Notes: generated by a model not told the origin, from the letters alone. A DNA stretch of 64,000 bases from Candidatus Moraniibacteriota bacterium (GCA_013334575.1 JAAXXG010000002.1:69377-133376), one strand, 5' to 3'; shown: positions 17,284 through 54,816, counted from the first letter of the stretch. Program-made: numbers and translations.

Positions 17284-17340
17284 ATTCTCCGCGATATTTC
17301 CGTCGAGGAACCGGGCGGTCGTATTCCTGATGTTCCCACT
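17284..17340 (-). pseudogene. duplicated fragment of the 3' end of nucleotidyltransferase gene 17873..18373
   Basis: About 90% identical to 17884..17940, which encodes the C-terminus EHQEYDRRFLDGYIANL, and carries a 1-nt indel. Lies downstream of the intervening 126-aa ORF. Confidence 0.5.
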
Positions 17341-17392
17341 CAAGCGGTTCTGATTAGCAAAAGATCCGCAAGTGATCTTTTGCTTGCGGATC

Positions 17393-17773
17393 TTATATCA
17401 CCGGAACCGATGGTGACGGATTCGATTCCCGCCACTCCTTAACACACTGCTCCACCGCGTCTTCATGATGCCGAACAGTCACGCTCACGTCTCCGATTTT
17501 CAGTACTTGTATTTTCATTACTTCTAAATATAATTGTCCCCCTTTCTCGACATGAAAAATATTATTTCCTAGCAAGTCGTCGGGTTTTTCCGTACAGATG
17601 ATAGTCGGAACGTCGATTATGCGGAAACACGCTCTTCCTCTAATTTTTCCGACATACGGCCCGATAAGCTCGCCGGATTCCCCTGGCTTGATGACGACAT
17701 CCGGTCCGTATTCGCAATCATGTACTGTCGCGTATGCGATCACGTTAAACGACGTTGCGTTGATAATTTTCAT
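17393..17773 (-). CDS. hypothetical protein (lower-GC ORF between direct repeats)
   Basis: 126-aa ORF, noticeably AT-richer than its flanks. Bounded by the two copies of the nucleotidyltransferase 3'-end repeat. Confidence 0.45.
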   Translation of the reverse strand: MKIINATSFNVIAYATVHDCEYGPDVVIKPGESGELIGPYVGKIRGRACFRIIDVPTIICTEKPDDLLGNNIFHVEKGGQLYLEVMKIQVLKIGDVSVTVRHHEDAVEQCVKEWRESNPSPSVPVI

Positions 17774-17872
17774 CCTACACCTCGGATTTATTTTTTGATG
17801 GATTATGCTGAAAAACTACAACCGATGAGAATACTGCCGTTTGAAAATATTGTCAACATCGGCAATATGTTC

Positions 17873-18373
17873 TCATCCTTTCCTCAAATTGGCGATATAT
17901 CCGTCAAGAAACCGGCGGTCGTATTCCTGATGTTCCCCGTCGAGGTGTTCCTTGTACTCGCGCAGCACCCGAGGGTCCATGAGCATGACAGAGACATTGT
18001 CGATCTCCATCCTCACGTCCGGATATCGGCCGTAGATCTCCCGGTTCCGGATCCACACCGCCCCGCCCTTGTCGCGCATGAGAAGCGTATCGGCGTCGGT
18101 CAGGTCGATGTCCTGTCCGTGATACGAGAGCGAGAGCGTCTCACAGTCCCACTTCTCGGTCAGATAGTGCTTCGGTCCCGCGACGATATACTCCTTCACA
18201 AGCGGGACGATGACCGGAAAAACCTTGCCGGAAATCGAGATGTCGATATCGTTCACCGGACGACCGGAACCGTAGAGCGCGGTCGCGAGTCCCCCGCCGA
18301 TCTGATACGGCACTCCGACCCCGTCGAGCACCCCGACAATCCATTTCATTGCATTGATGGTTTTCGTGATCAC
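17873..18373 (-). CDS. small nucleotidyltransferase, Lnu(A)/ANT-like family
   Basis: GGGLATALYGSGRPVNDIDISI matches the GG-x-G-x(n)-DIDI nucleotidyltransferase motif. 166 aa, similar in size to Lnu(A)-type enzymes (161 aa). Confidence 0.5.
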   Translation of the reverse strand: MITKTINAMKWIVGVLDGVGVPYQIGGGLATALYGSGRPVNDIDISISGKVFPVIVPLVKEYIVAGPKHYLTEKWDCETLSLSYHGQDIDLTDADTLLMRDKGGAVWIRNREIYGRYPDVRMEIDNVSVMLMDPRVLREYKEHLDGEHQEYDRRFLDGYIANLRKG

Positions 18374-18428
18374 ACACGTTCAAATATTATTTACCGATCC
18401 CGTGCCCCGATAAGAACATACCACCTCT

Positions 18429-19181
18429 TCACAAGACAGACACCCTTCCCAACAGCGGTCTCATGTAGTGATCAAACTTTCCCGGTCCGGACACCAGGAA
18501 TTCGCTGACGGACCCCTTCGGCAGATAGATGAGCGATCCGAATTCGGGAACCTCCCCCTTCTCGATCAGTTCCTCTTCAAACCGGGCATAATGCTCGGCA
18601 AATTCCGCCGCAGTCAACCGAAGCTTCAGCAAGAAAATCACCGCGATCGAATGGATGCCCGAATCATAACGAAGATACCCGGCATCAAGCCGCAGAACAG
18701 CCTTTCGGTCCTCGGACTCGATCCCGACTTCCTCCCGAAGCTCCCTCCCGATACCGTGTTTCATGTCGATTGCGTTTTCCCGAACATCTTCGAAGTCCAG
18801 ACCTCCGCCTACGCACTGGATATTTCCGGGATCGGACGTATGCTCGGCCATCCTGCCGAAAACGAGCACGTCATCCGCTGCCTCAATCAGACACGACGTA
18901 TGGATATTCTTGCAGGCGTACTTTTCAGGAAGCCCTACCCTCCTGGTATAGACATAGTGGGCATAATCCGAAAGATCGACAGCCACTCTCACCTCGCCGC
19001 CACGCTCTTCTATGCCCGAGATGGTAAAGACCTCGCCGCGAGTATACCGTTTCCCCTCCGCCATCAGTCCGTTCCAATACTCGTCGACCGCCTTTTGCGT
19101 CTCTGCCGGCAACATGAACCGATTCCCGGTATATGTCACGATCGGCTCGGACTTCAGTTCCAGAAGCGTATCTGACAGCAT
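18429..19181 (-). CDS. NUDIX-like hydrolase
   Basis: Nudix-box-like GGGLDFEDVRENAIDMKHGIGRELREEVGIE with the REx2EE core. Confidence 0.5.
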   Translation of the reverse strand: MLSDTLLELKSEPIVTYTGNRFMLPAETQKAVDEYWNGLMAEGKRYTRGEVFTISGIEERGGEVRVAVDLSDYAHYVYTRRVGLPEKYACKNIHTSCLIEAADDVLVFGRMAEHTSDPGNIQCVGGGLDFEDVRENAIDMKHGIGRELREEVGIESEDRKAVLRLDAGYLRYDSGIHSIAVIFLLKLRLTAAEFAEHYARFEEELIEKGEVPEFGSLIYLPKGSVSEFLVSGPGKFDHYMRPLLGRVSVL

Positions 19182-19201
19182 ATCGATACGGTTAAATAGG
19201 T

Positions 19202-19906
19202 CTAGGAAAGAATATTTGCGACCACTCTTACCATATCCTCGCGAAATGACCCGGTAAAGTCGTGCGTACCGGGAGTCGATATGACACGCATATCCGAAAG
19301 CGGGCGGGGAAGTTCGGCATCACCAAGAATCTCGTCATCCTGTGCCCGGACGAGGTACAGTTCGGTCTTCGCTGAAAATGCCTCATAGAGCGCAGGATGG
19401 TCGAGCGATTCTCGCTCCTTCCAGTACTCGGCTGGAACGATCGTAACCGTTCCGTCGGTGCGGGGCAATCGCGATACGCCATCAAGGTCGATGACCGCGC
19501 CCGGCTTTCCCTTGTAGCGCGCGATCGAACGGCGGATATCCGTCATGAACGGCGGAGCGAGAAATACCGCCTTTCGGATGCCGTCCGAATTCGCAAGCGC
19601 AGCCGTGATACAGCCCTGCGAATGTGCCACGAGGTCAATAACCGCTTCGGGATCCTGATTTCTGATTTCGCCGATCGTCTCGCTCAACCTCCGGACCTGA
19701 TCGCTAAACGGATGAACATGAAGTATCTTCCCGTCCTCGGACAGATCATTGTAGTCGAACATGACCGGAACGTATCCAACCCCGAGACCCTTCGCGATAT
19801 CCGCGAACAGCCCATCTCCGCCGCCATCCTTCCGCACGCCGAATCCGTGAGAAAAGACGACGTATCGGTGCATACCATGTTCAGGTAATTCTGTTTCGTC
19901 GTTCAT
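19202..19906 (-). CDS. alpha/beta-hydrolase fold protein
   Basis: Nucleophile elbow AHSQG (GxSxG). 234 aa. Confidence 0.55.
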   Translation of the reverse strand: MNDETELPEHGMHRYVVFSHGFGVRKDGGGDGLFADIAKGLGVGYVPVMFDYNDLSEDGKILHVHPFSDQVRRLSETIGEIRNQDPEAVIDLVAHSQGCITAALANSDGIRKAVFLAPPFMTDIRRSIARYKGKPGAVIDLDGVSRLPRTDGTVTIVPAEYWKERESLDHPALYEAFSAKTELYLVRAQDDEILGDAELPRPLSDMRVISTPGTHDFTGSFREDMVRVVANILS

Positions 19907-20057
19907 AAGAGTAATAAATACTCGGACCCGGCATCTGTCTTACCGGATTTGACCCGAAATACGTCTACCTCCATCCTGAAGTCAAACCTTTTCCCGCGAG
20001 CGTCAAAATTGATTCAGGATTACAGCGGAAATAGACAGCGCCTCCTTCAAGATTCTC

Positions 20058-20092
20058 ACACCGAAAACCCGCTTGTAAAGCGGGTTTCGCGA
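20058..20092 (-). terminator. intrinsic terminator downstream of 20169..20795
   Basis: Hairpin aaacccgcttgtaaagcgggttt, followed on the minus strand by TTTTCGG. The same stem recurs at 21352. Confidence 0.5.
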
Positions 20093-20168
20093 TTTCATCG
20101 AAAAAATGAGGCTTATATAAGCGACTAAGTAATTAGTTTTCGGATTTCAAATAATAAGGAATACCGAA

Positions 20169-21328: not shown

Positions 21329-21351
21329 ATATGTTCATCCCCATCTTCCCA

Positions 21352-21387
21352 CCGAAAAACCCGCCTGTAAAGCGGGTTTGTTGTTTC
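21352..21387 (-). terminator. intrinsic terminator downstream of 21398..21757
   Basis: Hairpin aaacccgcctgtaaagcgggttt followed by TTTTTCGG on the minus strand. Confidence 0.5.
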
Positions 21388-21397
21388 AGATATTCCC

Positions 21398-21757: not shown

Positions 21758-21809
21758 TCTTATCCGATTATGACCATAACTGCACGGGCGAAAACCGAGA
21801 CCAAGCTCC

Positions 21810-22805: not shown

Positions 22806-22826
22806 ACGACCGTTCCGACGTTAGTT

Positions 22827-23265: not shown

Positions 23266-23281
23266 GAAGAAGTATAGCACA

Positions 23282-24970: not shown

Positions 24971-25045
24971 ACGATGATCGACACGGAATAAGACCGAAGG
25001 CCCCGAGCCCCTCGAGGACCCGGAGCCGGAGACATGAAAACGGGA

Positions 25046-26791: not shown

Positions 26792-26834
26792 AGGTTCGAT
26801 CCGTTTCCTTCCACTGTACATGAAAACGAAAAAA

Positions 26835-26861
26835 TTAGCAATCTCTTTAAGAGAGTGCTAA
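26835..26861 (-). promoter_or_regulatory. CIRCE-like inverted repeat (HrcA operator) upstream of dnaJ
   Basis: TTAGCAATC-N9-GAGTGCTAA about 45 bp upstream of the dnaJ start. Same variant arms as the clpB copy. Confidence 0.7.
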
Positions 26862-36123: not shown

Positions 36124-37050
36124 ATGGAAACGATCGTCGTGGTCGGACCGACCGCGTCGGGAAAATCCGACTATGCCATCTCGCTCGCGCGCGAGACCGG
36201 CGGAGAGATCGTCTCCGCCGATTCGCGGCAGGTCTACCGCGGGATGAATATCGGCACCGGGAAGGTTCCCAGAGATACGTTCAATGTAGAGACGGGGCAT
36301 ACCCCGTCTCTACGGAATGACATTTCGTATATCTCCGGCGGTATCCGGCATCACCTTCTCGACGTCGCCTCGCCGAAACGGACCTATACCGTCACGCATT
36401 TCCTCCGTGATGCCAGGGCGGCGATCGACGACATACGGAAACGCGGCAAAACGCCCATCATCTGCGGCGGGACGAACTTCTGGATAGAGGCGCTCGTCTC
36501 CGATACCTCGTTTCCCGCGGTCAGACCCGATCCGCCCCTCCGAAAAACGCTCGGCCGACTCACCGCGCCCGAACTCTTCACGATGCTCGAGGAAAAGGAC
36601 CCCGACCGCGCGAAGACGATCGACCGTCACAATAAGGTCCGGCTCATCCGGGCACTCGAGATCGTCGCGACGCTCGGTAAAGTACCGACAAGCGGAACAA
36701 GGACTCAAGAATCAGGAATGAAGCGGGATGAGAAATTCCGATTCATCGGAGTCGATATCTCACGAGAACAGTTACGTGAAAATATCGTGAGACGACTCGA
36801 TAAGCGGCTCCGGGAAGGGATGGTCGACGAAGTACGACGGCTCCGCGAGGAAGAAGGAATCTCCTGGAAGCGCCTCGAGGGATTTGGACTCGAGTACCGC
36901 TGGTGCGCGCTGTTCCTTCAAGGAAAGATAACGGAAACGGAACTGCGCGACGGTATCACCCGCGACAGCCTCTCCTACGCCAAGCGGCAAATGACGTTTC
37001 TTCGGAAACTGGAACGAAACGGGATACGGATAGAATGGAGGAGAATTTGA
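36124..37050 (+). CDS. miaA: tRNA dimethylallyltransferase
   Basis: P-loop GPTASGKS, DSRQVYRGMNIGTGK and HHLLD motifs. Contains a 28-nt palindromic element in-frame at 36286-36313. Confidence 0.85.
   Translation: METIVVVGPTASGKSDYAISLARETGGEIVSADSRQVYRGMNIGTGKVPRDTFNVETGHTPSLRNDISYISGGIRHHLLDVASPKRTYTVTHFLRDARAAIDDIRKRGKTPIICGGTNFWIEALVSDTSFPAVRPDPPLRKTLGRLTAPELFTMLEEKDPDRAKTIDRHNKVRLIRALEIVATLGKVPTSGTRTQESGMKRDEKFRFIGVDISREQLRENIVRRLDKRLREGMVDEVRRLREEEGISWKRLEGFGLEYRWCALFLQGKITETELRDGITRDSLSYAKRQMTFLRKLERNGIRIEWRRI
36286..36313. repeat. perfect 28-nt palindromic element (REP-like), copy 1, inside the miaA coding sequence
   Basis: gtagagacggggcataccccgtctctac is translated in frame as VETGHTPSL. 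Confidence 0.75.
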
Positions 37051-37063: not shown

Positions 37064-37100
37064 ACAGTAAAGACGCCTCAGTGGGGCGTCTTTTATGTTT
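37064..37100. terminator. bidirectional terminator / REP-like hairpin between miaA and the RAYT gene
   Basis: aagacgcc tcagtgg ggcgtctt stem followed by TTTATGTTTGATTT. The stem core gacgcc/ggcgtc resembles copy 3 of the palindromic element. Confidence 0.5.
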
Positions 37101-37632
37101 GATTTATCGGATTCTCCTCATCCGTATCCCATTCCCGAGGATTGATACGGATATATTCCTGGATCAACCGTAGAGACTCCTCGTTCCGGATAATATGATC
37201 ATGGAATCGCGATTGCCATGAGAATCCGGATTCGGCATGCGACGCCCGGATTCTTTTCGTACAAACAGATTTGAACGACCCGACAATCGTCGCCAAAGTC
37301 GGTCGTTTTCGTGGTTCACTGTTTTCCGTAGAGACGGGGCATGCCCCGTCTCTACACGGAAGGATCTCGATGATTCCGTGAACATGATTCGGCATTACAA
37401 CAAATTCATCCGTTCGGATATCTCGAAAATGGTCCGGGATACTACCCCAGCAATCCCGGACGATTTCCCCGATTCCGGATAATGTCATCTCCCCGTTTTC
37501 GATATCGCCGAACCAGAGACACCGATCCGCGGCACAGATGGTCACGAAATATGCGCCAGGTTGGGAATAATCATATCCGGGTAAGCGTGATGATCGAATC
37601 CTGTATTTGCCTTTGTAGTTATCCGCTACCAT
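37093..37632 (-). CDS. REP-associated tyrosine transposase (RAYT, IS200/Y1 family)
   Basis: YRIRSSRLPGYDYSQPGAYFVTICAADR; HuH motif VVMPNHVHGIIEI; C-terminal WQSRFHDHIIRNEESLRLIQEYIRINPREW. Flanked by REP-like hairpins. Confidence 0.75.
   Translation of the reverse strand: MVADNYKGKYRIRSSRLPGYDYSQPGAYFVTICAADRCLWFGDIENGEMTLSGIGEIVRDCWGSIPDHFRDIRTDEFVVMPNHVHGIIEILPCRDGACPVSTENSEPRKRPTLATIVGSFKSVCTKRIRASHAESGFSWQSRFHDHIIRNEESLRLIQEYIRINPREWDTDEENPINQT
37327..37354. repeat. 28-nt palindromic element, copy 2, inside the RAYT coding sequence
   Basis: gtagagacggggcatgccccgtctctac, read on the minus strand as CRDGACPVST. Confidence 0.75.
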
Positions 37633-37721: not shown

Positions 37722-37795
37722 CTATCCTTTCATCTTCCCCTTCAGGATCTCCGCCACGACCTCCGGGTTGGCCTTCCCCTTCGTTTCCTTTCGGC
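37722..37795 (-). pseudogene. tandem remnant of the gatB 3' end
   Basis: The rc encodes KETKGKANPEVVAEILKGKMKG*, against KETKGKANPQVVSEILRKRLEA* for the true GatB C-terminus a few nt upstream. Confidence 0.5.
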
Positions 37796-37818: not shown

Positions 37819-39300
37819 CTACGCCTCCAGTCTTTTCCGGAGTATCTCGGAAACCACCTGCGGATTCGCTTTTCCTTTGGTTTCCTTCATCACCTGGCCG
37901 ATGAGGAACTGAAACGCGTTCTGCTTTCCGGCATGGTAATCCTCGACAGACTTCGCGTTCGCGGCAAGAATCGCGTCGACGATGCCTTCGAGCTCCCCCG
38001 TGTCGCTCACCTGCGCGAGATTGAGCCGGTCGATGATATGCGACGGATCGTTATCCTCGCCCTTGAGCATCTCACCGAGGACCGTCTGAGCTGCGCTCGA
38101 ATTGATTTTTCCATCGGCAATTATCACGATGAATTCCGCATAGTTCTCGGGAGTGATTCCCGACTCACTGATGGTTTTTCCGGATTCGACCAGTCGTTTT
38201 CGCAATTCGGTCACGATATAGTTCGCGGCGAGCCGGATCGCCTTCTCCTCCCCGGCGACCAACTCCTTGGAATCTTTCTTTTCTCCGATCTCGCTCACGA
38301 CCGCTTCGAAATAATCCGCGGTCGGCTTCTCGGCGGTGATCACCGAGACCGCTTCAGACGACAGTCCGTATTGCTTCGCAAACCGTTCTTCCTTGGCTGC
38401 CGGCAGTTCGGGAATGGTCAGACGGAGCGCCTCGATGTCCGCTTCCGAAAATGAGAAAGGCGGGATGTCCGGCTCGGGGAAATAGCGGTAATCGTGCGCA
38501 GACTCCTTCTTGCGCTGCGAAACGGTTTTCTGTCCGTTCTCGTCCCATCCGCGCGTCTCCTGTTCGATCTTCTCGCCCGATTCGAGCGCCTTCGTCTGTC
38601 GGGCGATCTCGTATTCGATCGCCCCGGCAACCGCCTTGAACGAGTTGAGGTTCTTCACCTCGACCTTGGTACCGGACAGCCGGTCCTCACCTTCCGCATA
38701 CAGCGAGATATTCGCCTCGCAGCGCATCTGTCCCTTTTCCATGTCCGCGTCCGAAATGTCGAGATACCGGAGGATCTGCCGAAGCTTCTGGCAGAAGAGC
38801 CGCGCGTCGGCGGCGTTGTCGATATCCGGCTCGGTCACGAGTTCCATGAGCGGCACCCCCGAACGGTTCAGGTCGACCAGGGTATGTTTGGTACCGGCGG
38901 GATGATACAGCTTGCCGGTGTCCTCCTCCATGTGGATCCGGGTGATGCCGACCGTCTTGCCCTCGCGGATCGTGAGCGCCCCCTTCCCGCAGAACGGTTC
39001 GTCGTACTGCGAGATCTGGTAGCCTTTCGGAAGATCGGGATAGAAATAGTTCTTGCGGTCGAACTTCGAGTGCCTGGCGAGTTCGCAGCCGAGCGCGAGT
39101 CCGGCCCGCTGCACCGATTCGATTGCCAGCCGGTTCGGAGTCGGAAGCGCTCCGGGCTGTGCGGTACAGACCGGGCAGATGTGTACGTTCGGTTCGGCCT
39201 CCTGTCCGAGACCGTTCCTGCACGAGCAGAACATCTTGGACTCGGTCCGAAGCTCGACATGGACCTCCATACCGATGACGGGAGTGTATTTCATAATCAT
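37819..39300 (-). CDS. gatB: Asp-tRNA(Asn)/Glu-tRNA(Gln) amidotransferase subunit B
   Basis: MIMKYTPVIGMEVHVEL N-terminus and C-terminal GatB/YqeY tail. The upstream ORF extension is Arg-rich read-through. Confidence 0.9.
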   Translation of the reverse strand: MIMKYTPVIGMEVHVELRTESKMFCSCRNGLGQEAEPNVHICPVCTAQPGALPTPNRLAIESVQRAGLALGCELARHSKFDRKNYFYPDLPKGYQISQYDEPFCGKGALTIREGKTVGITRIHMEEDTGKLYHPAGTKHTLVDLNRSGVPLMELVTEPDIDNAADARLFCQKLRQILRYLDISDADMEKGQMRCEANISLYAEGEDRLSGTKVEVKNLNSFKAVAGAIEYEIARQTKALESGEKIEQETRGWDENGQKTVSQRKKESAHDYRYFPEPDIPPFSFSEADIEALRLTIPELPAAKEERFAKQYGLSSEAVSVITAEKPTADYFEAVVSEIGEKKDSKELVAGEEKAIRLAANYIVTELRKRLVESGKTISESGITPENYAEFIVIIADGKINSSAAQTVLGEMLKGEDNDPSHIIDRLNLAQVSDTGELEGIVDAILAANAKSVEDYHAGKQNAFQFLIGQVMKETKGKANPQVVSEILRKRLEA

Positions 39301-43185: not shown

Positions 43186-43767
43186 ATGAGAGCCGTAACT
43201 GTAACAAACGAGCGACAGGAACCGAAAATCACGGTCGAGAAAAAGTTCATCATCAAAGAGGTTGACCGCTGTGGAATCCGGTTGTCGCGAGGTAAAAAAG
43301 AGCCCGTTTTCGTCCTGGTCGGAGAGCGTGATGCTTCCATCGTGAGACGGTCGACCGACTCGAAAACATCCTTCTTCGTCGACCGCATCGGACTCTCCCG
43401 CCGAATGACAGATTTCGGAGACTGGCGATACCGGCTTGTCGATGAACGATTCGGCCAGCGATATCCGAACGACTCCGTCCTGATCCGACTTATCATCGAT
43501 TCAGGAACCGATGATAGCTGCAAGATCCATTACGATCCCGCGGTGGAGATGATCAGCGTGCAGACCTACGCCAAAAAGGAATCTGAGCAAATCTTCACCC
43601 GCTCGGAGGCGCTCGCCATTCTCAAACCGGGACAGTCCCTCTTCGCCGAACGGCATGGGAGCGGCATCGACAAACCGTACGGGTGCATCAGAAACCATAA
43701 CGGACGGATCGAGGTCACCTGGAGCGAATCCAAGGACGATCTGCCTGCCCTCTTCTGCACCTACTGA
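43186..43767 (+). CDS. hypothetical protein
   Basis: 193-aa ORF with no motifs recognised. Confidence 0.4.
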   Translation: MRAVTVTNERQEPKITVEKKFIIKEVDRCGIRLSRGKKEPVFVLVGERDASIVRRSTDSKTSFFVDRIGLSRRMTDFGDWRYRLVDERFGQRYPNDSVLIRLIIDSGTDDSCKIHYDPAVEMISVQTYAKKESEQIFTRSEALAILKPGQSLFAERHGSGIDKPYGCIRNHNGRIEVTWSESKDDLPALFCTY

Positions 43768-43914
43768 TCCGGCAACCGATTATCCGAAACCCTTCGTCAG
43801 CGCACGGAGGGTTTCAATTTTCAATACCTTCCAACCCGTTACGAACCAGAGCGTCTTTTTTTTCCGCTTTGACGTCTCGGGATAAAACCTGCAACACCGC
43901 CCGAATCGTCACGA

Positions 43915-44015
43915 GACGACAGCGGGAAGGTTTTTTCGTTTCAAGCCCCTCCTTTCCGATTTCATCAAAAAAATGAGGCTCATATAAGCCTCATTATTTG
44001 ATCGTTTCGGATTTC
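43915..44015. repeat. intergenic repeat element A (about 100 nt, terminator-containing)
   Basis: Near-identical to B at 44677..44774. Contains a hairpin aatgaggctcatataagcctcatt with an A-run before and a T-rich run after, acting as a bidirectional terminator. Confidence 0.7.
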
Positions 44016-44132
44016 TGACAAAATGAAAGCGTTTGCCTCAGGCAACACCCGGAATTTTGACAGCACCGAAAGAACCCTATAACATGCCAAAAAAAGCCCT
44101 TTCCCATCAACCGAACGATTCCCGGAGGCAAC

Positions 44133-44624
44133 ATGCGAACGCAACGAAGCTATTATCTCGCCGCATTTCTTGGCGCGCTATATGCGCCGATTCTCGGGAC
44201 GGTCTACCCGGACGCCTTGTCGATCGAAGTACCGCTTAGTGTATCCGTAACAGTTGCGGCCGTCTTTATACTGGTCTTCTCCACGCTCCTTCGAAGAAAC
44301 GGTTTCCGCTCCGCGCTTGGGGTAGCGGGTTACCAACTGGCATACCTGACAACTCTACTGTCGCTCGCGGTACAATATCTTAAACATGGAACCGGAGCAG
44401 TCGCTCCCGCCTTCTTCGGAACATTCGCCCATTCTTCCGTTACTGTTCTTTCCTCGATTCAAGACGAGAAATTCCTACTGGTATTTATCTGGACGGCTGT
44501 CGCCATGAACAATGCCATGGTGTACCTTCATCCGCCAATCCACGTATTGTGGACCGTCGCCCTCATGTTCTACGTCCTCTACGGACTGTCCGAGGAGCCC
44601 GAGACGATCGCTCCGGAATCGTAG
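44133..44624 (+). CDS. small integral membrane protein
   Basis: 163 aa with 5 hydrophobic helices. Flanked by repeats A and B. Confidence 0.45.
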   Translation: MRTQRSYYLAAFLGALYAPILGTVYPDALSIEVPLSVSVTVAAVFILVFSTLLRRNGFRSALGVAGYQLAYLTTLLSLAVQYLKHGTGAVAPAFFGTFAHSSVTVLSSIQDEKFLLVFIWTAVAMNNAMVYLHPPIHVLWTVALMFYVLYGLSEEPETIAPES

Positions 44625-44676
44625 GGCCTGTGCCGAATCAAGAATGAAGCCTCCCCGCTCGAATCATCGCAAGATG

Positions 44677-44774
44677 ACGACGGGGAGGTTTTTTCGTTTC
44701 AAACCCCTCCTTTCCGATTTCATCAAAAAAATGAGGCTCATATAAGCCTCATTATTTGATCGTTTCGGATTTCG
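44677..44774. repeat. intergenic repeat element B
   Basis: Same element as A, with an additional upstream stem cctccccg ... cggggagg followed by TTTTTT. Confidence 0.7.
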
Positions 44775-44864
44775 GGCAAAATCTGAACCTATGAACGTCC
44801 CTCGTGATCCGGTAAGAAAGAAGCCCGTGTTCTTGGAACACGGGCCTCGAAAAGAACATACCTG

Positions 44865-46029
44865 TCAGAGGTTCGTCATGATGGCCTCCCCCATCGCCTC
44901 GGTACCGAGAATCATATCGCGGTTATCAACCAGCCTCGCCAAATCCGCGGTACGATATCCCGCCAAAAGCGTCTTCTCCACCGCCTTCTCGATAGCCCCC
45001 GCACCAACCTTCGCTCCGATATGACGAAGCATCATCGCAGCCGTCAGGATCCGACCGATAGGATTCACCTTATCCTTCCCCTTAAGGTCGCAGGCCGTTC
45101 CCGCTCCGCTCTCGAACATTGCGGAACCGGTTTCCGGATTCACGGCGGAACTGCACATCATACCAAGACTTCCCAGCATGCCAGCAGCGCCGTCGGAGAG
45201 AATGTCGCCGTGTTCGTTTCCGCACATGATGACTCCCGCAAGCTTCATCGGCATGCCGAGCAGTGCGTTCGCCGCATCGACATACAGATGGGAAAGCGGG
45301 ACATCGGGGAATTCTGCCTTTCCGATCTCGGTCGCCATTTTCCGCCACAGTACGTAGCGAGCCATCACGTTCGTCTTATCGATCGAGATGACCGGAAGAC
45401 CGCGCTCCCGGGCATACCAAAACACGGCACGCATGTACTTCAGGAGCGTCTCGCGACGATAATAGGCAAGTTCAACGACCGCCTCCTCATCCCCGACGAC
45501 TTCCTTCTTCAACTTGATCATCAACTGGTCCCGCACTCCGCAACCGATATGATCATACAGATCCGAAGTGCCAAAGTAACTGTCCTCGAGCAGCATCCGG
45601 ACGAAAACCTGTACTATACCATCCGATGGGATATTTTCCGGCCGCACGAGACACAGATGATCCAGCGACTTGTGATAGACGACCGGCCGGAAGTTGAGCA
45701 ACAAGCCCATTTCCTTGCGCAGGGCAAGTAATGCCCGTGCTTCCGGCATCATCTCCGGATGTTTCACGCCGAGCGTCTTATCAATCTCAGTATCCCCCAC
45801 TCCTCCGAAGAAGAGTGTCCCGATCTCCACTGCTCGTTTCAACGACTCGGCAGGAAGCGTATCGCCGAATTCCCTGAAGGCGTTCCACCCCATCGGCGTT
45901 TTTTCGAAGACGATCTCGATACCGTCCTTTTTCGCGGCTTCGATGGCGACCGCACATGCGGCCGCCATCATTTCCGGAGCCGCCCCGTCGCCCGTCACGA
46001 GCGCGATTCGAACTTCCCTTCCTTCTTTC
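44865..46029 (-). CDS. isocitrate/3-isopropylmalate dehydrogenase family (LeuB-like)
   Basis: IALVTGDGAAPEMM, a GSLGMMCSSAV region and a dehydrogenase C-terminus. Start assigned to TTG at 46027-46029, preceded by AAAGGAGGG, to avoid a 115-nt overlap with the upstream gene. Confidence 0.7.
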
Positions 46030-46051
46030 AAGAGTCCCTCCTTTTGTTGAT

Positions 46052-48019
46052 TTACAGCTTTCCTTCCGCCTGCAATCCGGCGGCTGTCTCGAACATGAAC
46101 GGGATGACTCCGCCTTTCCTGAGCAGCTCCTTCTGCAGCCAGGTAAGCTTGAACGGAATCTCCCACATGTCCTCACCCGCCGTACCGACGCGGACCACAC
46201 CCTCGTCCGGAAGCACTTCGACCGTGTCCGGTCGCCTCTCACGCAGGTCATTCATGACCTCGTCCGGGAGTTCGACACACAGCAGGCCGTTCGCAAACAT
46301 GCTGGCACTGAAAATACGTGCGAAGCTCGACGCGATAACGCATGTGATTCCAGCCTCGAAAAGGGACCAAGGAGCATGTTCACGCGACGAACCGCAACCG
46401 AAGTTCTTACCAGCGACCAGTACGCTCGACCGGAACAGCCGTTCCTGTTCCTCCCCGGTCAGGTCGACCCCTTCAAGACAGTGCTGTCCAAGCCCGGTTT
46501 TCACGGACGTCGTCAGGTACTTCGCCGGGATGATGACATCCGTATCGACATTGTCCCCTCTCTTCCCCTGGAGATACAAGACTTTCCCCGAGAACTCCGG
46601 CTTGACCGTGATGCGCGTGGCCCGATGCAGTACGCCGTAGTCCGGCCGACTCAACTCGGTCACCCCATCCCAGTCTGTGAGATTGAGCGGATGACCTTCT
46701 TCGGACATGCTCGCGATATCGTCGAGCACACGTCCACACAGCTCCGGACTCGGCACCGCGACGCTTCCCGTCATGGCCGACAACGCCGCCACCGCCGGAG
46801 AACAGAGATGCACCATACCGCCCTTACCCATCCTTCCCTTGAAGTTCCGGTTACTGGTCGAAATGCACACCTCTCCGGGAGCGAGGACGCCTCCGCTCAT
46901 ACCCAGGCACGGTCCGCACGTCGCTGACATGACGACGCATCCCGCGGCCATGAATACATCGATGAGACCCTCATACAAAGCTCGCCGATAGATATGCTGC
47001 GTCGCCGGAATAACGATACACCGCGTACCGTCAGCGATCCTGCCGCCGAAATCACGCATGATGCCGGCCGCGATGCGCAGGTCTTCCAGGCGTCCGTTCG
47101 TGCAGGATCCGATGAACACCTGCTGAAACGGCATACCCTCCAGATCGGACGCTGGCACGACATCGGCCGGGGTATACTCCACCGTGATGAGCGGCTGCCT
47201 GTCAGTCACGTCGATCGTGATGACCTGATTATACTCGGCATTCGGGTCGCTGTTCCACGCCAGCAATTCCTCTTCCTCATATCCCGCCGACTCGATGAGC
47301 GGCCGCAGATATTCGATGGTCTTGTCGTCCACCGCCACCATACCGGATGTCGCCCCGGCCTCGACCACCATGTTCGTCATGGTCATCCTCGCCTCCATGC
47401 TGAGCGCCTCCACGACCGGCCCGCCGAATTCGATGACCGCATTCGTCGCGCCGGCAACTCCCATCACCTCGATCAGCATCAGGATGAGGTCCTTGGCGAA
47501 CACGTTCGCCGGGAGTGTCCCGACATACTCGACGCGGATCACCCGCTGAGGCTGACAGAACCAGAGCTCGGTCGAAACGGCCGCCATCATCTCCGAAGTC
47601 CCGACTCCCGCGGTAAGCGCACCGAACGCGCCACCGGTACAGGTATGACTGTCACCCATGACGGCAATCTGCCCCGGGAACAGCCACCCGCTCTCGGGAA
47701 AAAGCGCGTGACAAACGCCCCCCTGCCCCGCATCGCGGAATTCGATGCCGTGTTCCTTACACCATTTTCGCAGCGTATCGGCCTGAAACGCCGTCGCCTC
47801 GTCGTTGGACGGGCAGACGTGGTCGATCGTCGCTTTTATCCTGTTCGGATCGAATACCACGTCACAGCCGCGGGCCTTCATGTCCACGATACCAGGAGGC
47901 GTCGTGATTTCATGACAGAAGACCTGATCCACTTTCAGCACCATGGTCCCGTCCGGAAGCGTTTTCAGCAAATGCGCATCGACGATTTTCTGATACGCCG
48001 TTTTTCCTCGTTTCTGCAT
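46052..48019 (-). CDS. aconitase-family hydro-lyase, fused large+small subunit (LeuC/LeuD-like)
   Basis: 655 aa. Fe-S cluster cysteines in GSCTNGR and TCGPCLG contexts, and a LeuD-like swivel domain at the C-terminus. Confidence 0.8.
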   Translation of the reverse strand: MQKRGKTAYQKIVDAHLLKTLPDGTMVLKVDQVFCHEITTPPGIVDMKARGCDVVFDPNRIKATIDHVCPSNDEATAFQADTLRKWCKEHGIEFRDAGQGGVCHALFPESGWLFPGQIAVMGDSHTCTGGAFGALTAGVGTSEMMAAVSTELWFCQPQRVIRVEYVGTLPANVFAKDLILMLIEVMGVAGATNAVIEFGGPVVEALSMEARMTMTNMVVEAGATSGMVAVDDKTIEYLRPLIESAGYEEEELLAWNSDPNAEYNQVITIDVTDRQPLITVEYTPADVVPASDLEGMPFQQVFIGSCTNGRLEDLRIAAGIMRDFGGRIADGTRCIVIPATQHIYRRALYEGLIDVFMAAGCVVMSATCGPCLGMSGGVLAPGEVCISTSNRNFKGRMGKGGMVHLCSPAVAALSAMTGSVAVPSPELCGRVLDDIASMSEEGHPLNLTDWDGVTELSRPDYGVLHRATRITVKPEFSGKVLYLQGKRGDNVDTDVIIPAKYLTTSVKTGLGQHCLEGVDLTGEEQERLFRSSVLVAGKNFGCGSSREHAPWSLFEAGITCVIASSFARIFSASMFANGLLCVELPDEVMNDLRERRPDTVEVLPDEGVVRVGTAGEDMWEIPFKLTWLQKELLRKGGVIPFMFETAAGLQAEGKL

Positions 48020-48182
48020 GTTCGTCCCCTGTTTTCGTTGAGTGAATATACTATTTGTTAAACAAAACGGATCCTACAGTGCAGGATCTCGTGCCATTCC
48101 GATATACCAGGAAACGACTCGTATAGCAAGCGGATAATGACATTTACGACTTCAAACCGTCTTTTGGCCACAATCTTCCCAG

Positions 48183-48238
48183 TTTCACCAAAAAAATGAG
48201 GCTCATATAAGCCTCGTTATTTGATCGTTTCCGATTTC
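48183..48238. repeat. intergenic repeat element C (core of the A/B family)
   Basis: tttcaccaaaaaaatgaggctcatataagcctcgttatttgatcgtttccgatttc. Confidence 0.65.
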
Positions 48239-48284
48239 GGGCAGAACCGGGCAGATTCTGGAAACGTTACATAATCTGACGACC

Positions 48285-48401
48285 GCATTATTTTGTAACG
48301 TTTTCTGAGCGATGGATGGAAACGACTTGGTAGATGATTGTGTCGATCGCGGTCACGGTCAGCACCGGCATATCGTCTTCCGTCGCACGGATGAGGTTCA
48401 T
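48285..48401 (-). pseudogene. detached 5' fragment of the GNAT acetyltransferase gene (copy X)
   Basis: rc encodes MNLIRATEDDMPVLTVTAID ...; the first ~50 nt match the start of 50113..50574. Confidence 0.5.
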
Positions 48402-48556
48402 AGCGACCCAGCTCTTCAGGATCGTATCAGGCCCCTTTTCCGATTCCAGATAGCGTTTCGTTCCGTCAATTATTTTTTTCCACGCGAGCGGAATGTTTTT
48501 TTATCTAAAAAAAGCAGGTCCCACATTCGTGAGACCTGCTAAATACTCTCCTTTCA

Positions 48557-50008: not shown

Positions 50009-50112
50009 GCTAGACTCCGTGTTTTCGTTGTAGGATGCTATTCACTTATAAAAAATACTTCGGTATACGATAATACAGAATATGAATTCTGTCAAACCAA
50101 TCTCTCACTTTC

Positions 50113-50574
50113 TTATATAGAATCGTCTCTTTCTTTCGTGTCACACTCCCTCGTCATGATGATCCGAGGCTGTCCGTCGCCGTAGAGATTATCCTCCCGA
50201 CCGGAAGCGACGAAGCCGAGCGACTCATAGAGCTTCACGGCGTGATTGTCCGGGTGAACGTCGAGGCTCACGCGGTCGAATTCCCGCAATTCCTCGAGCA
50301 GCATTCCCATAGCCTTTCGGGCCAATCCCCTCCGTTGGAACTCGGGCGCGATAATAAGTCCGCTCACGTAGGCATAATCGGTATCCTTCACCCGGTAGGA
50401 GATATCCCCGACGATCACTCCGTCCTCCTCGATCAGATAGACAGTCTCGTCGCGGATCCACTGCCGCATCTCCTCGTCGGTGAAACCCCAGTTGTAGACA
50501 ATCAGATCCCTCGCGGTCTCCTCGATCGCGGTCAGTACCGGCATATCGTCTTCCGTCGCACGGATGAGTTTCAT
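50113..50574 (-). CDS. GNAT family N-acetyltransferase
   Basis: MKLIRATEDDMPVL start, acetyl-CoA motif RRGLARKAMGMLLEEL. 153 aa. Confidence 0.75.
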   Translation of the reverse strand: MKLIRATEDDMPVLTAIEETARDLIVYNWGFTDEEMRQWIRDETVYLIEEDGVIVGDISYRVKDTDYAYVSGLIIAPEFQRRGLARKAMGMLLEELREFDRVSLDVHPDNHAVKLYESLGFVASGREDNLYGDGQPRIIMTRECDTKERDDSI

Positions 50575-50745
50575 AAGATCACATATCATTCATGATCGTA
50601 TTCCTCTCCTGTTTTGATAGACTATCAACAAAAATATCGCCTTTCCAAGCCATAAAATGACACTTGATTTATCTAAGATTTTATGATATCATAAAACGTT
50701 GTGCCTTCATAATCTATAAGCATACTCTCGAGGAGGAGAGTCATC

Positions 50746-51192
50746 ATGCCAAAACTTCTCAAATACGGGCTTTCAACCCTGGGCGTCTGTGGCATTTTTG
50801 CGATTATCATCGTAGCGATGCTTAGCCGCGGGACTTTCGGTCATCTCGTGCCACTATCGGACGAGGATCTGAAAACGATTACCGAGGTGACTACGCAGGA
50901 TTCGAATTCATCCATCGCGTTCCGTTCCCATTCGGAAATACTACGGTGCGGCCCGCTTTCGCTTCGAAAAACAAGCCGCATCTCGGCATTCGTTTTTCGT
51001 GGAGAACCTATCTCGGCGCGCAAGACCGTCATGTACGGTTCACTCCGGTTCGGCAACCAAGCAGACGAAATGATGCCCCCGCTCCGAATACCAGACGGTG
51101 CGAACTCAATGTACTGGTATGAATGCGGCAACACCACCGTATCCCTTGGATCCATACCGGATCCGCATATCGGAATCGGATTCAATTTCTGA
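50746..51192 (+). CDS. hypothetical membrane-anchored protein
   Basis: GAGGAGG RBS, N-terminal TM helix, 148 aa, followed by a terminator. Confidence 0.4.
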   Translation: MPKLLKYGLSTLGVCGIFAIIIVAMLSRGTFGHLVPLSDEDLKTITEVTTQDSNSSIAFRSHSEILRCGPLSLRKTSRISAFVFRGEPISARKTVMYGSLRFGNQADEMMPPLRIPDGANSMYWYECGNTTVSLGSIPDPHIGIGFNF

Positions 51193-51196
51193 AAAA

Positions 51197-51240
51197 AAAC
51201 GGCCGACACGTCATAACGAGTGTCAGCCGTTTTTTCATTC
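51197..51240. terminator. bidirectional intrinsic terminator
   Basis: A-run, then the cggccgacac ... gtgtcagccg stem with one mismatch, then a T-run. Confidence 0.5.
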
Positions 51241-51292
51241 CCTTGTAACACCGAACAACCGCGTAACGCTTCAACATCCGAAACGACCCTAT

Positions 51293-51390
51293 GCGATCAT
51301 GACCATTGCATTGAATTTGCCGTCCTTCTCGGTCTCCTCGATCGCAGTCAGCACCGGCATATCGTCTTCCGTCGCGCGGATCAAGTTCAT
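51293..51390 (-). pseudogene. detached 5' fragment of the GNAT acetyltransferase gene (copy Z)
   Basis: rc encodes MNLIRATEDDMPVLTAIEETEKDG... then a stop after 32 codons. About 90% identical over ~60 nt to the start of 50113..50574. Confidence 0.5.
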
Positions 51391-51394
51391 AGGA

Positions 51395-51850: not shown

Positions 51851-51859
51851 ATATAATCA

Positions 51860-52411
51860 TTATTCAGATAGCTTACGAAATATATCCTCATTAAGCAATT
51901 CTTCAGATGTTTTATTTATTTCGTTTAGATATGAACGCAATGTTTTTAAATCTAGTTTAATAAAATCCCCATATACCCCATCTTTATCGACGCCAATTTT
52001 CGTCAATACGACAAAGTCATTGCCCATTTCCAACCAACGAGCGTGTATAGCCTTATTCCTTATTACGGCCGCTTCTTTTAATCTCAAATGTAATGATGCA
52101 TACAAAGAAGACAACTCCGGTTTTCCAACATGTTTGCACATGGGAACAAAAAAATCTCTAAACAAATCGACTTTTTGTGAAAAAGTTAGTTTCGCAATAA
52201 CCGTGTAGCCTAAATCACTGGACCTAGAATGAATAAAACTAGTTAGCACATCATCAAGAACACTCTCAAGATAATTAAAGTCCAATATAATTTCCCCAAG
52301 TATCAGCTTTATTTGCTTCAATTTCGCAGCTGATATCGTTGTATCGAAATCATGATTAAAACTCCCATCATCGAGATATATTTTCATATAATTATTTTGG
52401 TTTCGCTCCAT
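51860..52411 (-). CDS. hypothetical protein in an AT-rich island, possible HEPN-like domain
   Basis: GC drops sharply over 51860-52440. R-x4-H motif in AAVIRNKAIHARW. 183 aa. Confidence 0.4.
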   Translation of the reverse strand: MERNQNNYMKIYLDDGSFNHDFDTTISAAKLKQIKLILGEIILDFNYLESVLDDVLTSFIHSRSSDLGYTVIAKLTFSQKVDLFRDFFVPMCKHVGKPELSSLYASLHLRLKEAAVIRNKAIHARWLEMGNDFVVLTKIGVDKDGVYGDFIKLDLKTLRSYLNEINKTSEELLNEDIFRKLSE

Positions 52412-52440
52412 GAAAAAAAGAGGGTCTACTCGCCTCTCTT

Positions 52441-53043
52441 TTATATCGCCTTCACATAACGCTCCGCGACGCTTCGGAAGTCCTCCGTTCCATCGATCAG
52501 CACCGACTTGATCCCAAAACTTCGACCGACCTCGACGTTCTCTTCCTCATCGTCGAAAAAGATGACCTCTTCAGGAGAAAGGTCCAGTTTCTCCAGGATA
52601 ACTTCGAAAAATCGGGGGTCGGACTTCGAGAGTCCCGACTCGAACGAATAAAAGAAACCGTCGAGCTCATGCCCTATCCCGAGGTTCTTCTCTATATATT
52701 CGGCACGATATTTTTCCTGGTCCGTGGCCAAATAGCATTTCAAACCTCTCTCCCGCAGGTCTCTGACCACATCCAAGACATCCGAATCAACGACGCTTTG
52801 GGAAAACCAAAATTCAAGAAAACTCTCGACATCACCCTCCCACTTCCACTGTTTCAGAAACGGCACCAGTTCTTCTTTCAGATCCGCAGTCGCCTTCTGA
52901 CAATCCCTGAACCGCGTCTTAAAGAACGGAATGACCATCTCGGCTGAAACACCGTACTGTTCGTGAAGAATATCGCTGAAATAACGCTGTTTCTTGATCA
53001 GAAGACCGTCGGCGTCCAGTAGTATGGCCTTGATGTCGTTCAT
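52441..53043 (-). CDS. HAD-superfamily hydrolase
   Basis: Motif I LLDADGLL, motif II-like CYLATD, motif IV FFDDEEENV. Confidence 0.7.
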   Translation of the reverse strand: MNDIKAILLDADGLLIKKQRYFSDILHEQYGVSAEMVIPFFKTRFRDCQKATADLKEELVPFLKQWKWEGDVESFLEFWFSQSVVDSDVLDVVRDLRERGLKCYLATDQEKYRAEYIEKNLGIGHELDGFFYSFESGLSKSDPRFFEVILEKLDLSPEEVIFFDDEEENVEVGRSFGIKSVLIDGTEDFRSVAERYVKAI

Positions 53044-53061
53044 AGAGGTTTCCGTTTAACT

Positions 53062-53703
53062 CTATCCTTCAGACCGCACAGATCTACTTGCCTCTTTTTT
53101 GGTCGTTTTCTTGGTTGTCTTGGCCGTGGACTTCTTGCCTTTGGCGAAGTTGAGATACATCTTGGACGCGACGGGCTTCTTGTCGCCGTAGTACTTGGAA
53201 TTGAGCCCCTCCGAGCCGTAGGGCTTCTCGCAGGGCGAGGAGAGCTCCTCGAAGGCGACCTGGCCGATTGCCATCTTGTAGTGAAGCTTGATCGGGAGGC
53301 GCCCCGCGTTGAAAAGCTCGAGGGTGAGCTTGAGCGAATTGCCCGGGTCGAGAAATCCCGCGGTCGTATGGATGATGAGCCCCAGGCGGCCGAGCGAGCT
53401 CTTGCCCTCGAGCCGGCAGGCGTAGCGGTCCGAGACGCCGGTCTCCTCGTAGATGAGGCCGAGCGCGAACTCGCCGGGATGCAGGATGAACGGCTCGTCC
53501 GGCCGGATTTCCATCGGCTTCATAAGGCCCTGCGTGGGGGCCTTGGGATCGATGACGAAGTTGTGTGTCGTATCGAAGACCAGGAAGTGTCGGTCGAGGT
53601 GGACGTCCACGCTCGCCGGCTGGACGTGCTTGCGGTTGAACGGCTTAATGGTGATGTCGCCCTTGCGAAGGGCCTTCACGATGTCGCGGTCGGAAAGGAT
53701 CAT
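53062..53703 (-). CDS. dcd: dCTP deaminase with Lys/Thr-rich C-terminal tail
   Basis: MILSDRDI ... PASVDVHL ... jelly-roll dUTPase-like core, plus a KKSTAKTTKKTTKKEASRS tail. Confidence 0.8.
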   Translation of the reverse strand: MILSDRDIVKALRKGDITIKPFNRKHVQPASVDVHLDRHFLVFDTTHNFVIDPKAPTQGLMKPMEIRPDEPFILHPGEFALGLIYEETGVSDRYACRLEGKSSLGRLGLIIHTTAGFLDPGNSLKLTLELFNAGRLPIKLHYKMAIGQVAFEELSSPCEKPYGSEGLNSKYYGDKKPVASKMYLNFAKGKKSTAKTTKKTTKKEASRSVRSEG

Positions 53704-53927
53704 AGGAGTCTTCGGTTATGGGGATCTGCCGACTCCCTCCGGCACCCATTGTACGGGAAAGGCCGATAAAAAGGAACCTTGGCAGAATTCCATCCCCGTG
53801 TCATCCCGAGCGCAGTCGAGGGATCCACGGATATATCAGGACCAGAGTCGATTCTCCTGGCAGATTCCTCCACTCGAAGACTCTCCGGCATTCGCCGGAC
53901 TCCGGGTCGGAATGACAAGACAAAAAA

Positions 53928-53993
53928 ACAGGCCCCGAGAAGGGCCTGCTTCTGCATTTCGTGCTGTCGGAAACTAGGAGAGCTTCACCGTGA
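53928..53993 (-). repeat. 66-nt direct repeat: duplicate of the rplA 3' end plus its terminator hairpin
   Basis: About 92% identical to 54751..54816. Includes rc ...VKLS* and the aggccc ... gggcct hairpin with a T-run. Confidence 0.65.
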
Positions 53994-54111
53994 CTCACCG
54001 AGTCCGGCAGGAACATAGGCCGGAAGACGCGTTTCTTCCGCGTGTCGGAGTCATAAAATGAAAGAGGAGAACCGATACCGGTTCTCCTCATTCTTGACGG
54101 AATGAATGATG

Positions 54112-54540
54112 TCAGGAGATGTTCCCCCGAATCCCATATACCGCTCGCGTGATGCTCAAGAGAATAAGGAACGCGAGCGCCAGCAGCACCGAGTGGGCCG
54201 TCATCGCCCCTCTCCAGTCAGTGAAGGAGTAGACGCCTGAAATCGCACAAGCGATCAATCCAAACGCCATGTTCGCCGTAAACAGGATGACGAGTCCGGT
54301 TAAAACCTGCGGTACCGAAATGGTCCTTGATGACTCGGGTAGGACCACATACCCGGCGAGCGCAAAGACGAAACATACACCCGCGTACTGAACGAGTGGC
54401 CGATGAAACAACGGCAACCCGATCCCATGCATCCACAGCAGGAAAGCCGTGATAGTCAGTGCTGCAAAAAACGCGGACAGAAAGAAAAACATCCCCGAAA
54501 GCCTTACTCTTTGTGGTAAGACGAACGCAAAATGATTCAT
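54112..54540 (-). CDS. small integral membrane protein
   Basis: AAGGGGG RBS. 4 hydrophobic helices. Lies between the two rplA-3'-end repeats. Confidence 0.45.
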   Translation of the reverse strand: MNHFAFVLPQRVRLSGMFFFLSAFFAALTITAFLLWMHGIGLPLFHRPLVQYAGVCFVFALAGYVVLPESSRTISVPQVLTGLVILFTANMAFGLIACAISGVYSFTDWRGAMTAHSVLLALAFLILLSITRAVYGIRGNIS

Positions 54541-54750
54541 GGTATCCCCCTTTAGCACTTCGTGCCTTAATTTATAGAGTTATTAAACACGAAATGACTC
54601 TAGCATTAAATCCATATAATGTCAAGTCTCTTCACATCAACACAGAAGTCATCTTCTTGTCGTCCAAGCGAGGGCAGGGCCTTTCCGTGCCGAGTAGAAG
54701 ATTCCCGCCTTCGCGGGAATGACCGATAGAGAAGGCTCGACGATACGAAA

Positions 54751-54816
54751 ACAGGCCCCGGGAAGGGCCTGTTTCGGCATTTCGTGCCGTCAGAAACTAG
54801 GAGAGCTTCACCGTGA
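54751..54816 (-). repeat. 66-nt direct repeat (true rplA 3' end and terminator)
   Basis: Overlaps the last codons and stop of rplA. Hairpin aggcccttcccggggcct followed by GTTTTCG. Confidence 0.65.

Follow-up and report, generated by a model that had tools for sequence, protein, structure and literature searches.

Four loci in a 64,000-nt stretch of DNA (the window; GCA_013334575.1 JAAXXG010000002.1:69377-133376), taken from a high-GC metagenome-assembled genome (MAG) of Candidatus Moranbacteria (Patescibacteria, or Candidate Phyla Radiation, CPR), were found to share one layout: direct repeats, mostly made of gene ends, flank a single small gene, so that an intact gene end is separated from a truncated second copy, here called a stub. 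We consider it moderately probable that exchange within a naturally recombining Moranbacteria population left these loci as scars at a few hot spots of gene turnover, and that they are not the products of a dedicated cassette system. Judged by their sequence, the stubs would derive from functional homologues that had diverged, and would not be recent duplications of the target.

The window was compared with two Logan assemblies from other runs (contigs L001 and L083), a second NCBI MAG (L082, 99.4% identical), a second species (L090, 88% identical) and loci of related species (L002–L009 and others). The nearest rplA loci in the species collection showed 78–86% protein identity to the window, and window proteins matched NCBI MAG entries assigned to Candidatus Moranbacteria.

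Direct repeats and the units between them

The 3′ end of a nucleotidyltransferase-like (NT) gene is present twice at 17 kb (17291–17350 and 17892–17950; 60 nt, 85% identical). At 44 kb, the repeat designated D3 covers 128 nt on the plus strand (43897–44024 and 44655–44782; 91% identical). The 5′ end of a GNAT acetyltransferase gene is repeated at 50507–50578 and 51323–51394 (72 nt, 87.5%), with a third copy at 48350–48427, and on the minus strand at 54 kb a 69-nt repeat comprising the last 21 nt of rplA and its terminator occurs at 53925–53993 and 54748–54816 (93%). Across loci, repeat copies are 43–128 nt long and 84–93% identical, and are located at a 5′ end, at a 3′ end or between genes. 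Since BLAST E-values for the repeat pairs ranged from 1e-7 to 1e-42, the repeats are not chance matches.

The first-pass annotation had placed direct repeats at 17.3, 44, 48–51 and 54 kb, and all of them were present, significant and recovered in independent assemblies. Its description of the repeats as copies of gene ends held for NT, GNAT and rplA; the 44-kb repeat is no gene terminus but a member of a conserved family of intergenic elements. Seven repeat pairs were counted in the 64-kb window and 23 in 1.25 Mb of related loci, a control that is ribosomal-protein-centred and unmatched.

Strain variants joined by a metagenome assembler could also leave such repeats, and this would fit both the MAG origin of the window and the divergence between copies, which is similar to between-strain variation. 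However, identical structures were found in L001, L083 and L082, the 50-kb unit was also found in the species at 88% identity (L090), and the stub junction sequences are unique on both sides. As the structures recur in independent assemblies, the repeats are not assembly artefacts in our assessment, and an origin of this kind, which the first-pass annotation had itself raised, is extremely improbable.

The flanked units are 533–754 bp long, with a GC content of 0.46–0.54 compared with about 0.60–0.63 for core genes. Each contains a promoter-like site (TTGACA/TTGATT-N17-TAnnnT), a ribosome-binding site and one open reading frame (ORF) of 126–163 aa. Three units have a hairpin terminator of their own, and the 44-kb unit relies on a hairpin within the downstream repeat copy. 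By these predicted signals, each flanked unit is a complete and autonomous transcription unit.

The 17-kb unit (17351–17883, minus strand) has its promoter-like site at 17828–17856, its ORF at 17393–17773 (126 aa, GC 0.46) and its hairpin terminator at 17356–17394. In the 44-kb unit (44025–44654, plus strand), a promoter-like site at 44057–44085 precedes an ORF for a membrane protein (44133–44624, 163 aa), with the terminator located in the second D3 copy. The plus-strand unit at 50579–51322 carries a promoter-like site at 50664–50692, an ORF at 50746–51192 (148 aa) and a terminator at 51194–51235. The 54-kb unit (53994–54747, minus strand) encodes an orphan membrane protein (54112–54540, 142 aa) between a promoter-like site at 54597–54625 and a terminator at 54064–54089.

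The cargo proteins (126, 163, 148 and 142 aa), described at first as short membrane or unknown proteins of 126–163 aa, are orphan or sparse. About 50 distant homologues, all at most 51% identical, were found for the 17-kb protein, and their sources supply no names. The 44-kb protein has a 38%-identical counterpart in L004, likewise sited between element copies; the 50-kb protein has a single homologue, and its unit occurs together with its repeats in L090. No relative was found for the 54-kb protein.

A common cargo family was ruled out, the four proteins being mutually unrelated, and so was tandem duplication of a neighbouring gene, as blastn and tblastx revealed no similarity between units and neighbours. 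Neither consistent terminal inverted repeats nor ends in common were found among the units, and searches of the window for tRNAs and Rfam families gave no match. No sequence or structure common to the repeats of different loci was found either. The coding repeats showed no secondary structure (z = −0.16 for GNAT and +1.59 for NT), which excludes hairpin targeting shared by all loci.

A Pfam scan of 60 window ORFs yielded no integrase, resolvase or DDE transposase and a single weak Y1_Tnp match, in a degenerate homologue of the transposase associated with repetitive extragenic palindromes (REP; the transposase is abbreviated RAYT). This agrees with the earlier statement that no integrase or transposase other than the RAYT is nearby. 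Because neither repeat structure nor unit ends are shared, one structure- or sequence-specific enzyme acting at all loci is unlikely. The trans-acting system previously proposed to insert cargo and regenerate gene ends is accordingly not supported, in view of the absence of shared motifs and structure and of the synonymous differences, GNAT flanks and gatB order described below.

Divergence between stubs and intact genes

Stubs and intact copies were compared by the ratio of nonsynonymous to synonymous divergence (pN/pS) over 15–23 codons per locus. For a duplicate decaying freely beside a constrained intact copy, a ratio of about 0.5 would be expected by our own estimate. The observed values were 0.19 for gatB, 0.22 for GNAT and 0.25 for NT. 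In gatB, about 16 of the 25 differences were synonymous (P = 2e-5 against neutrality), and pS was about 1, well above the 0.6% strain divergence. By this pattern, purifying selection acted while the copies diverged.

The gatB stub (37722–37790, minus strand) encodes KETKGKANPEVVAEILKGKMKG, and the true C-terminus of gatB reads KETKGKANPQVVSEILRKRLEA. It lies 28 nt downstream of the true stop codon (37819–37821) and is contiguous with the REP/RAYT segment, giving the order gene, 28 nt, stub, REP, RAYT. The tandem 3′ remnant noted in the first-pass annotation is real, but no ORF lies between the two copies. In sequence, the stub is similar to gatB alleles that are more distant (PEVVA...).

At the NT locus, the ends of the gene differ between the copies. 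In relatives (L086, L088, L089) the gene terminates in IASNGL* and is followed by a D1-like element, D1 being the core of the D3 repeat. In the stub (17284–17350, minus strand) a +1 frameshift is present and the tail, IAENGI*, is native-like; a D1-like element follows at 17207–17266. The intact gene (17873–18373, minus strand; 158/166 aa; repeat copy 17884–17950) has a new tail, IANLRKG*, whose last 6–7 codons or so run into the insert. Contrary to the proposed regeneration of gene ends, the NT end at 17 kb was replaced by inserted-side sequence.

The GNAT copies carry different upstream sequences. The intact gene (50113–50589, minus strand; repeat copy 50507–50578) retains about 17 nt of type-1 upstream sequence, as in L004 and L008. 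The stub at 51323–51394 (minus strand), located directly after a NUDIX gene, has a type-2 upstream sequence (TAGTCCT-ATG), as in L003. A third 5′ fragment (48300–48401, minus strand; MNLIRATEDDMPVLT...) has the native-type upstream sequence GAATCGGAAAAGGGG, which matches L004 and L008. The repeat copies around the 50-kb unit are 96% identical in L090 versus 87.5% in the window, which suggests conversion in one lineage; the event itself predates the 88%-identity split.

At the rplA locus, the distal stub (53925–53993, minus strand) combines the final 21 nt of rplA with the terminator hairpin and is contiguous with the upstream region of dcd. The proximal copy (54748–54816, minus strand) is the 3′ end of the intact gene (54797–55489) with its terminator. 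Both window terminators have the form AGGCCC...GGGCCT, and those of relatives the form GGACCC...GGGTCC. In six related species (L002–L005, L007, L009) the site is empty, with rplA, one terminator and dcd, and relative to these the window carries 823 extra bp. In L008, another gene lies between two terminators of differing type.

Several further observations were made at this site. The gene in L008 (10690–11610) is unrelated to the window cargo and has its own promoter and terminator, and in L006 the rplA stop codon and the terminator are separated by about 120 nt of additional hairpin-rich sequence (approximately 9530–9650). REP-like palindromes of the GTCATTCC/GTCATCCC type occur at 53800–53830, 53890–53920 and 54700–54725, and palindromes of this type are located 8–24 nt after both rplA repeat copies. 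GTCATTCC has four occurrences only in the window.

Of the classes described so far, insertion with long target duplication (Nobusato et al. 2000; Furuta, Abe & Kobayashi 2010, PMC2853133) comes closest; in it, genes lie between direct repeats of more than 30 bp that are present as a single copy in a related genome. Members of this class have repeats of variable length, often over the 3′ end of a flanking gene, no transposase or integrase, inserts of lower GC content and mostly naturally competent hosts, and their mechanism is unknown (PMC2853133). The earlier claim that no described system matches was therefore too strong, the same architecture having been described there. The present loci are alike in their repeats of more than 30 bp (60–128 nt at four loci), the lack of a mobility gene, the empty rplA–dcd site and the single hybrid D1 of L082 treated below. 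They differ in that the described cases carry restriction-modification cargo between repeats usually 95–100% identical (PMC2853133), whereas single small orphan ORFs, a CPR host, copies 84–93% identical and synonymous-biased differences are seen here.

Under this explanation, staggered nicks or an equivalent repair intermediate, followed by fill-in, would have duplicated 60–130 bp of target, and the stubs would have diverged later. The repeat length, the one-copy empty site, the missing mobility genes and a probably competent host agree with it, as do the lineage-specific states shared by the rplA and D3 copies; the GTCATTCC palindrome after both rplA copies would fit an original duplication of about 115 nt. 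However, it does not account for the excess of synonymous changes between copies, the GNAT flanks of two allele types or the L008 cargo flanked by terminators of two types, and the gatB order of gene, stub and cargo, with its pS of about 1, is unobtainable by duplication. We regard it as rather unlikely for the set as a whole, and as possible for the rplA and D3 loci specifically.

The synonymous bias, the GNAT allele flanks, the exchanged NT tail and the gatB order all speak against one duplicated target as the source of both copies at these loci.

Hot spots of gene content and the D1/D3 element

The gene order rplA-dcd-thyX-...-gatB-miaA is widely conserved. In L016, L018, L021 and L029, dcd directly adjoins thyX; in the window, L003, L004, L007 and L009, 2–10 kb of differing accessory genes separate the two. 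Other genes (a 198-aa ORF, or Fic) follow NT in relatives, and the contents of the interval between the NT and ABC genes vary; upstream of GNAT, the content differs in every relative. All stub cases are located where relatives vary in gene content, and the hot spots lie downstream of rplA and of the NT gene, upstream of GNAT, and in the dcd–thyX and gatB–miaA intervals. These comparisons show the flanked units to be additions relative to the relatives. Within the accessory block, an ORF of 183 aa (51860–52411; GC 0.34, GC at third codon positions (GC3) 0.30, no Pfam match) is probably a recent foreign acquisition.

The D1/D3 element is intergenic, about 70–130 nt long, and consists of a terminator-like hairpin (hairpin A) and a long imperfect palindrome. 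The first copy (43897–44024, plus strand), downstream of the ORF at 43186–43767, contains hairpin A and the D1 palindromic core, and the second (44655–44782, plus strand) is its repeat match. A third D1 copy at 48175–48246 (plus strand) is followed by a 45-nt inverted-repeat element at 48251–48309, and weak matches to the core were found at 20080–20148 and 17207–17266. The element occurs at both hot spots, as well as in L004 (three copies), L007, L009 and L088/L089, and its orientation relative to rplA is constant. Between species it is 80–90% conserved, while the flanked proteins are 35–38% identical.

Hairpin A shows one compensatory change (TCGTC/GACGA versus TCATC/GATGA), and the large D1 palindrome is not kept as a structure in L004. 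Neither D1/D3 nor the inverted-repeat element matched an Rfam family, and a D1-pattern scan of Joint Genome Institute (JGI) metagenomes gave two low-GC chance matches only. On the minus strand (43897–43950 and 44655–44708), and in elements e1 and e3 of L004, hairpin A of D3 is overlapped by a conserved mini-ORF, MKRK[NS]LPVVI[LS]R*, with AAGGAG ahead of it. Because the compensatory stem changes of the first copy alter the peptide, the structure and not the peptide seems to be conserved. Overall, D1 behaves, as far as its sequence and distribution can tell, as a terminator-like module and a recombination substrate.

The 45-nt inverted repeat, AAACGTKACATAATAATGCGGTCGTCAGATKATGTAACGTT, shows about 90% conservation across three species, with a conserved loop and arm changes that are not compensatory. 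Besides the window copy (48251–48309), it was located in L004 (19897–19955), L088 (5634–5689 and 6853–6909) and L089 (1951–2006). The two L088 copies are 100% identical and lie 1220 nt apart, with a Fic gene between them.

The element also marks a difference between strains. A 4.16-kb block (44016–48174) contains the 44-kb unit, the second D3 copy, icd (44865–46166) and an aconitase gene (46052–48019), and it is missing from L082, which jumps from window position 48175 to 44015. At this point L082 has a single hybrid D1, the left part corresponding to copy 1 and the right part to copy 3. Thus, strain comparison for insertion polymorphism, which the first-pass annotation had recommended, identified one repeat family (D1) marking presence or absence. 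The aconitase and icd pair (44865–48019) is unusual for CPR and is missing at the locus in L082, L004 and L007.

Differences between the window and L082 were unevenly distributed. A 6.2-kb block (48.57–54.79 kb) was free of them. The final 300 nt of rplA together with the proximal repeat held 10 single-nucleotide polymorphisms (SNPs), the 48-kb GNAT fragment and D1 about 20 differences over roughly 450 nt, and the 1.2 kb past D1 35. The proximal rplA repeat of L082 holds two states typical of the distal copy of the window. The SNP clusters, the hybrid D1 and these repeat states bear the marks of homologous exchange and conversion ending at repeats. Separately, 14 substitutions were found within 32 nt (58461–58492), where the ORF at 57622–58323 overlaps the amidase (gatA) ORF.

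These properties could also be explained by a site-specific recombinase encoded elsewhere in the genome, which would use D1, the 45-nt inverted repeat or both as att-like sites and build accretion arrays, similar to integrase-less cis-mobilizable elements (CIMEs) or an integron analogue. The trans-acting system of the first-pass annotation would then be of this kind. Both elements are better conserved than the genes they flank and occur in one orientation at two hot spots in three species; they bound the strain-specific block, with the crossover inside an element, and they punctuate small-gene arrays in L088 and L004. However, the 64-kb window encodes no recombinase, the rplA, NT, GNAT and gatB repeats lack D1, and D1 itself has no attC-type RYYYAAC...GTTRRRY ends by inspection. 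Each cassette has a promoter of its own, both orientations occur, D1-like elements are also present at orthologous intergenic positions as terminator-like hairpins, and RecA-type recombination would be enough for a crossover between 72-nt, 90%-identical repeats. We consider this explanation improbable. The same holds for its more specific form, in which D1 and AAACGTKACATAATAATGCGGTCGTCAGATKATGTAACGTT would be recognition sites of an undescribed CPR integron analogue that captures self-expressed mini-cassettes at terminator-like sites, with the stubs as off-target or accretion products; we give it little credence.

The repeats vary in sequence, length, age and position, and several GNAT paralogues and fragments are also present in L090, as might be expected if no common process existed and decaying paralogues, local duplication and a repeated terminator family had, as unrelated accidents, accumulated in one window. 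Against this, the same layout of an intact gene end, a small gene with its own signals and a stub appears four times with a period of 600–823 bp, comparable layouts were seen in L004, L008 and L088, and every case is at a position of variable gene content. A mere coincidence of accidents is thus hardly probable.

In the favoured reading, that of recombination scars, DNA from a related lineage would bring its own conserved gene end together with adjoining lineage-specific cargo. Integration would involve two joints: a homologous crossover, in the conserved gene or close to it, and a non-homologous junction, which would be imprecise, usable homology being present on one side only. Where that junction fell within the terminal part of the gene or its terminator, the displaced end would remain as a stub beyond the new DNA; in the gatB variant, a donor stub would have been left beside the resident gene. 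Selection would retain only events with an intact gene, and since only such survivors are seen and the intergenic space of the compact genome is mostly terminators, the repeats look as if made of gene termini. Once established, the repeats, notably D1, could serve homologous recombination in block removal, gain, swap and conversion. The mechanism of the joint and the donors are the parts of this reading that we infer.

Several results weigh against this reading. No donor sequence was found, the imprecise junction is itself deduced, and no clear microhomology was seen at the junctions inspected. A mosaic test along gatB (identity and GC3) revealed no clear recombination tract, and the synonymous-bias tests covered 15–23 codons each, with gatB alone individually strong. 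The copies at 54 kb and at 44 kb share lineage-specific states, which fits duplication or a very close donor. The deletion junction in L082 lies in a 27-nt identical stretch, where an assembly misjoin is possible, and four to five scars in 64 kb represent a high density for an unassisted process.

Relation to described systems and meaning for CPR gene turnover

In transformable bacteria, foreign DNA reportedly enters the genome by homology on one side and an illegitimate junction on the other (de Vries & Wackernagel 2002; Prudhomme et al. 2002); such events are said to delete recipient DNA typically and to show 3–10 bp of microhomology at the joint. This homology-facilitated illegitimate recombination would explain the stubs, the allele-type flanks and the cargo-less gatB case. 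The present loci differ from it in that recipient ends are kept as stubs, no microhomology was demonstrated and no donor is known.

Integron arrays and clusters of attC sites lacking integron-integrases (CALINs) resemble these loci in their small, often orphan ORFs of 0.5–1 kb, their imperfect palindromes in one orientation and their strain variability. In contrast, the window has no IntI, no attC R″/R′ boxes by inspection and units with their own promoters in both orientations, and most repeats are gene ends without a common site. As regards integrase islands and CIMEs, which have a cognate integrase and reuse an identical core at each insertion, the window encodes no integrase, and D1 alone is reused, the other repeats being unrelated. 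Minimal mobile elements of Neisseria (Saunders & Snyder 2002) reportedly consist of alternative cassettes at one site between conserved genes, swapped by homologous recombination after DNA uptake. Site sharing is common to both, but the Neisseria elements are not known to leave flanking direct repeats or stubs. Insertion sequences and miniature inverted-repeat transposable elements were ruled out by the lack of terminal inverted repeats and by repeat lengths of 43–128 nt, compared with target duplications of less than 15 bp.

A REP/RAYT product was excluded as well, as the REP is not at the unit borders and the RAYT lacks the expected Tyr motif. The RAYT-like Y1 transposase homologue (37093–37632, minus strand; weak Pfam Y1_Tnp match) separates gatB from miaA, two genes that adjoin each other in relatives. 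It has HVH, and the position of the Tyr motif reads WQSRFHDH/SRFHDH by eye; from its sequence, the protein may be inactive. The REP (GTAGAGACG..CGTCTCTAC) was found only at 36286 and 37328, with degenerate copies near 37.07 and 37.67 kb recognized by eye. Its palindrome, GTAGAGACGGGGCATRCCCCGTCTCTAC, is found in frame within the miaA ORF at 36286–36313, in a loop of varying length among relatives, and within the RAYT-like ORF at 37328–37355.

Two other repeated features were noted. A terminator-plus-promoter-like module, AAACCCGCTTTACA(A/G)GCGGGTTTTT(C/T)GGTGGGAGAAT, stands just upstream of many genes, with window copies at 20058–20095 and 21345–21385 (minus strand) and copies in L088 at about 4140, 5600, 7690, 9310 and 9850; its hairpin sequence is near-identical across loci and species. 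Inverted repeats resembling CIRCE (controlling inverted repeat of chaperone expression), TTAGCAATCTC-N5-GAGAGTGCTAA, were located at 9593–9644 and 26810–26861, one upstream of an 881-aa minus-strand ORF and the other at the start of the dnaJ region.

CPR/Patescibacteria have tiny genomes with many small unknown membrane proteins that vary between close relatives, and their turnover is poorly documented. The window offers a sequence-level view of this turnover, with fixed hot spots, one-gene autonomous units and stubs that would record imprecise recombination involving diverged relatives. A conserved intergenic element mediates the presence or absence of a 4-kb aconitase–isocitrate dehydrogenase block between strains that are 99.4% identical. 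The architecture of long target duplication is extended beyond restriction-modification genes, and the divergence of the copies suggests that at least some cases assigned to that class represent two diverged homologous ends and not one duplicated target.

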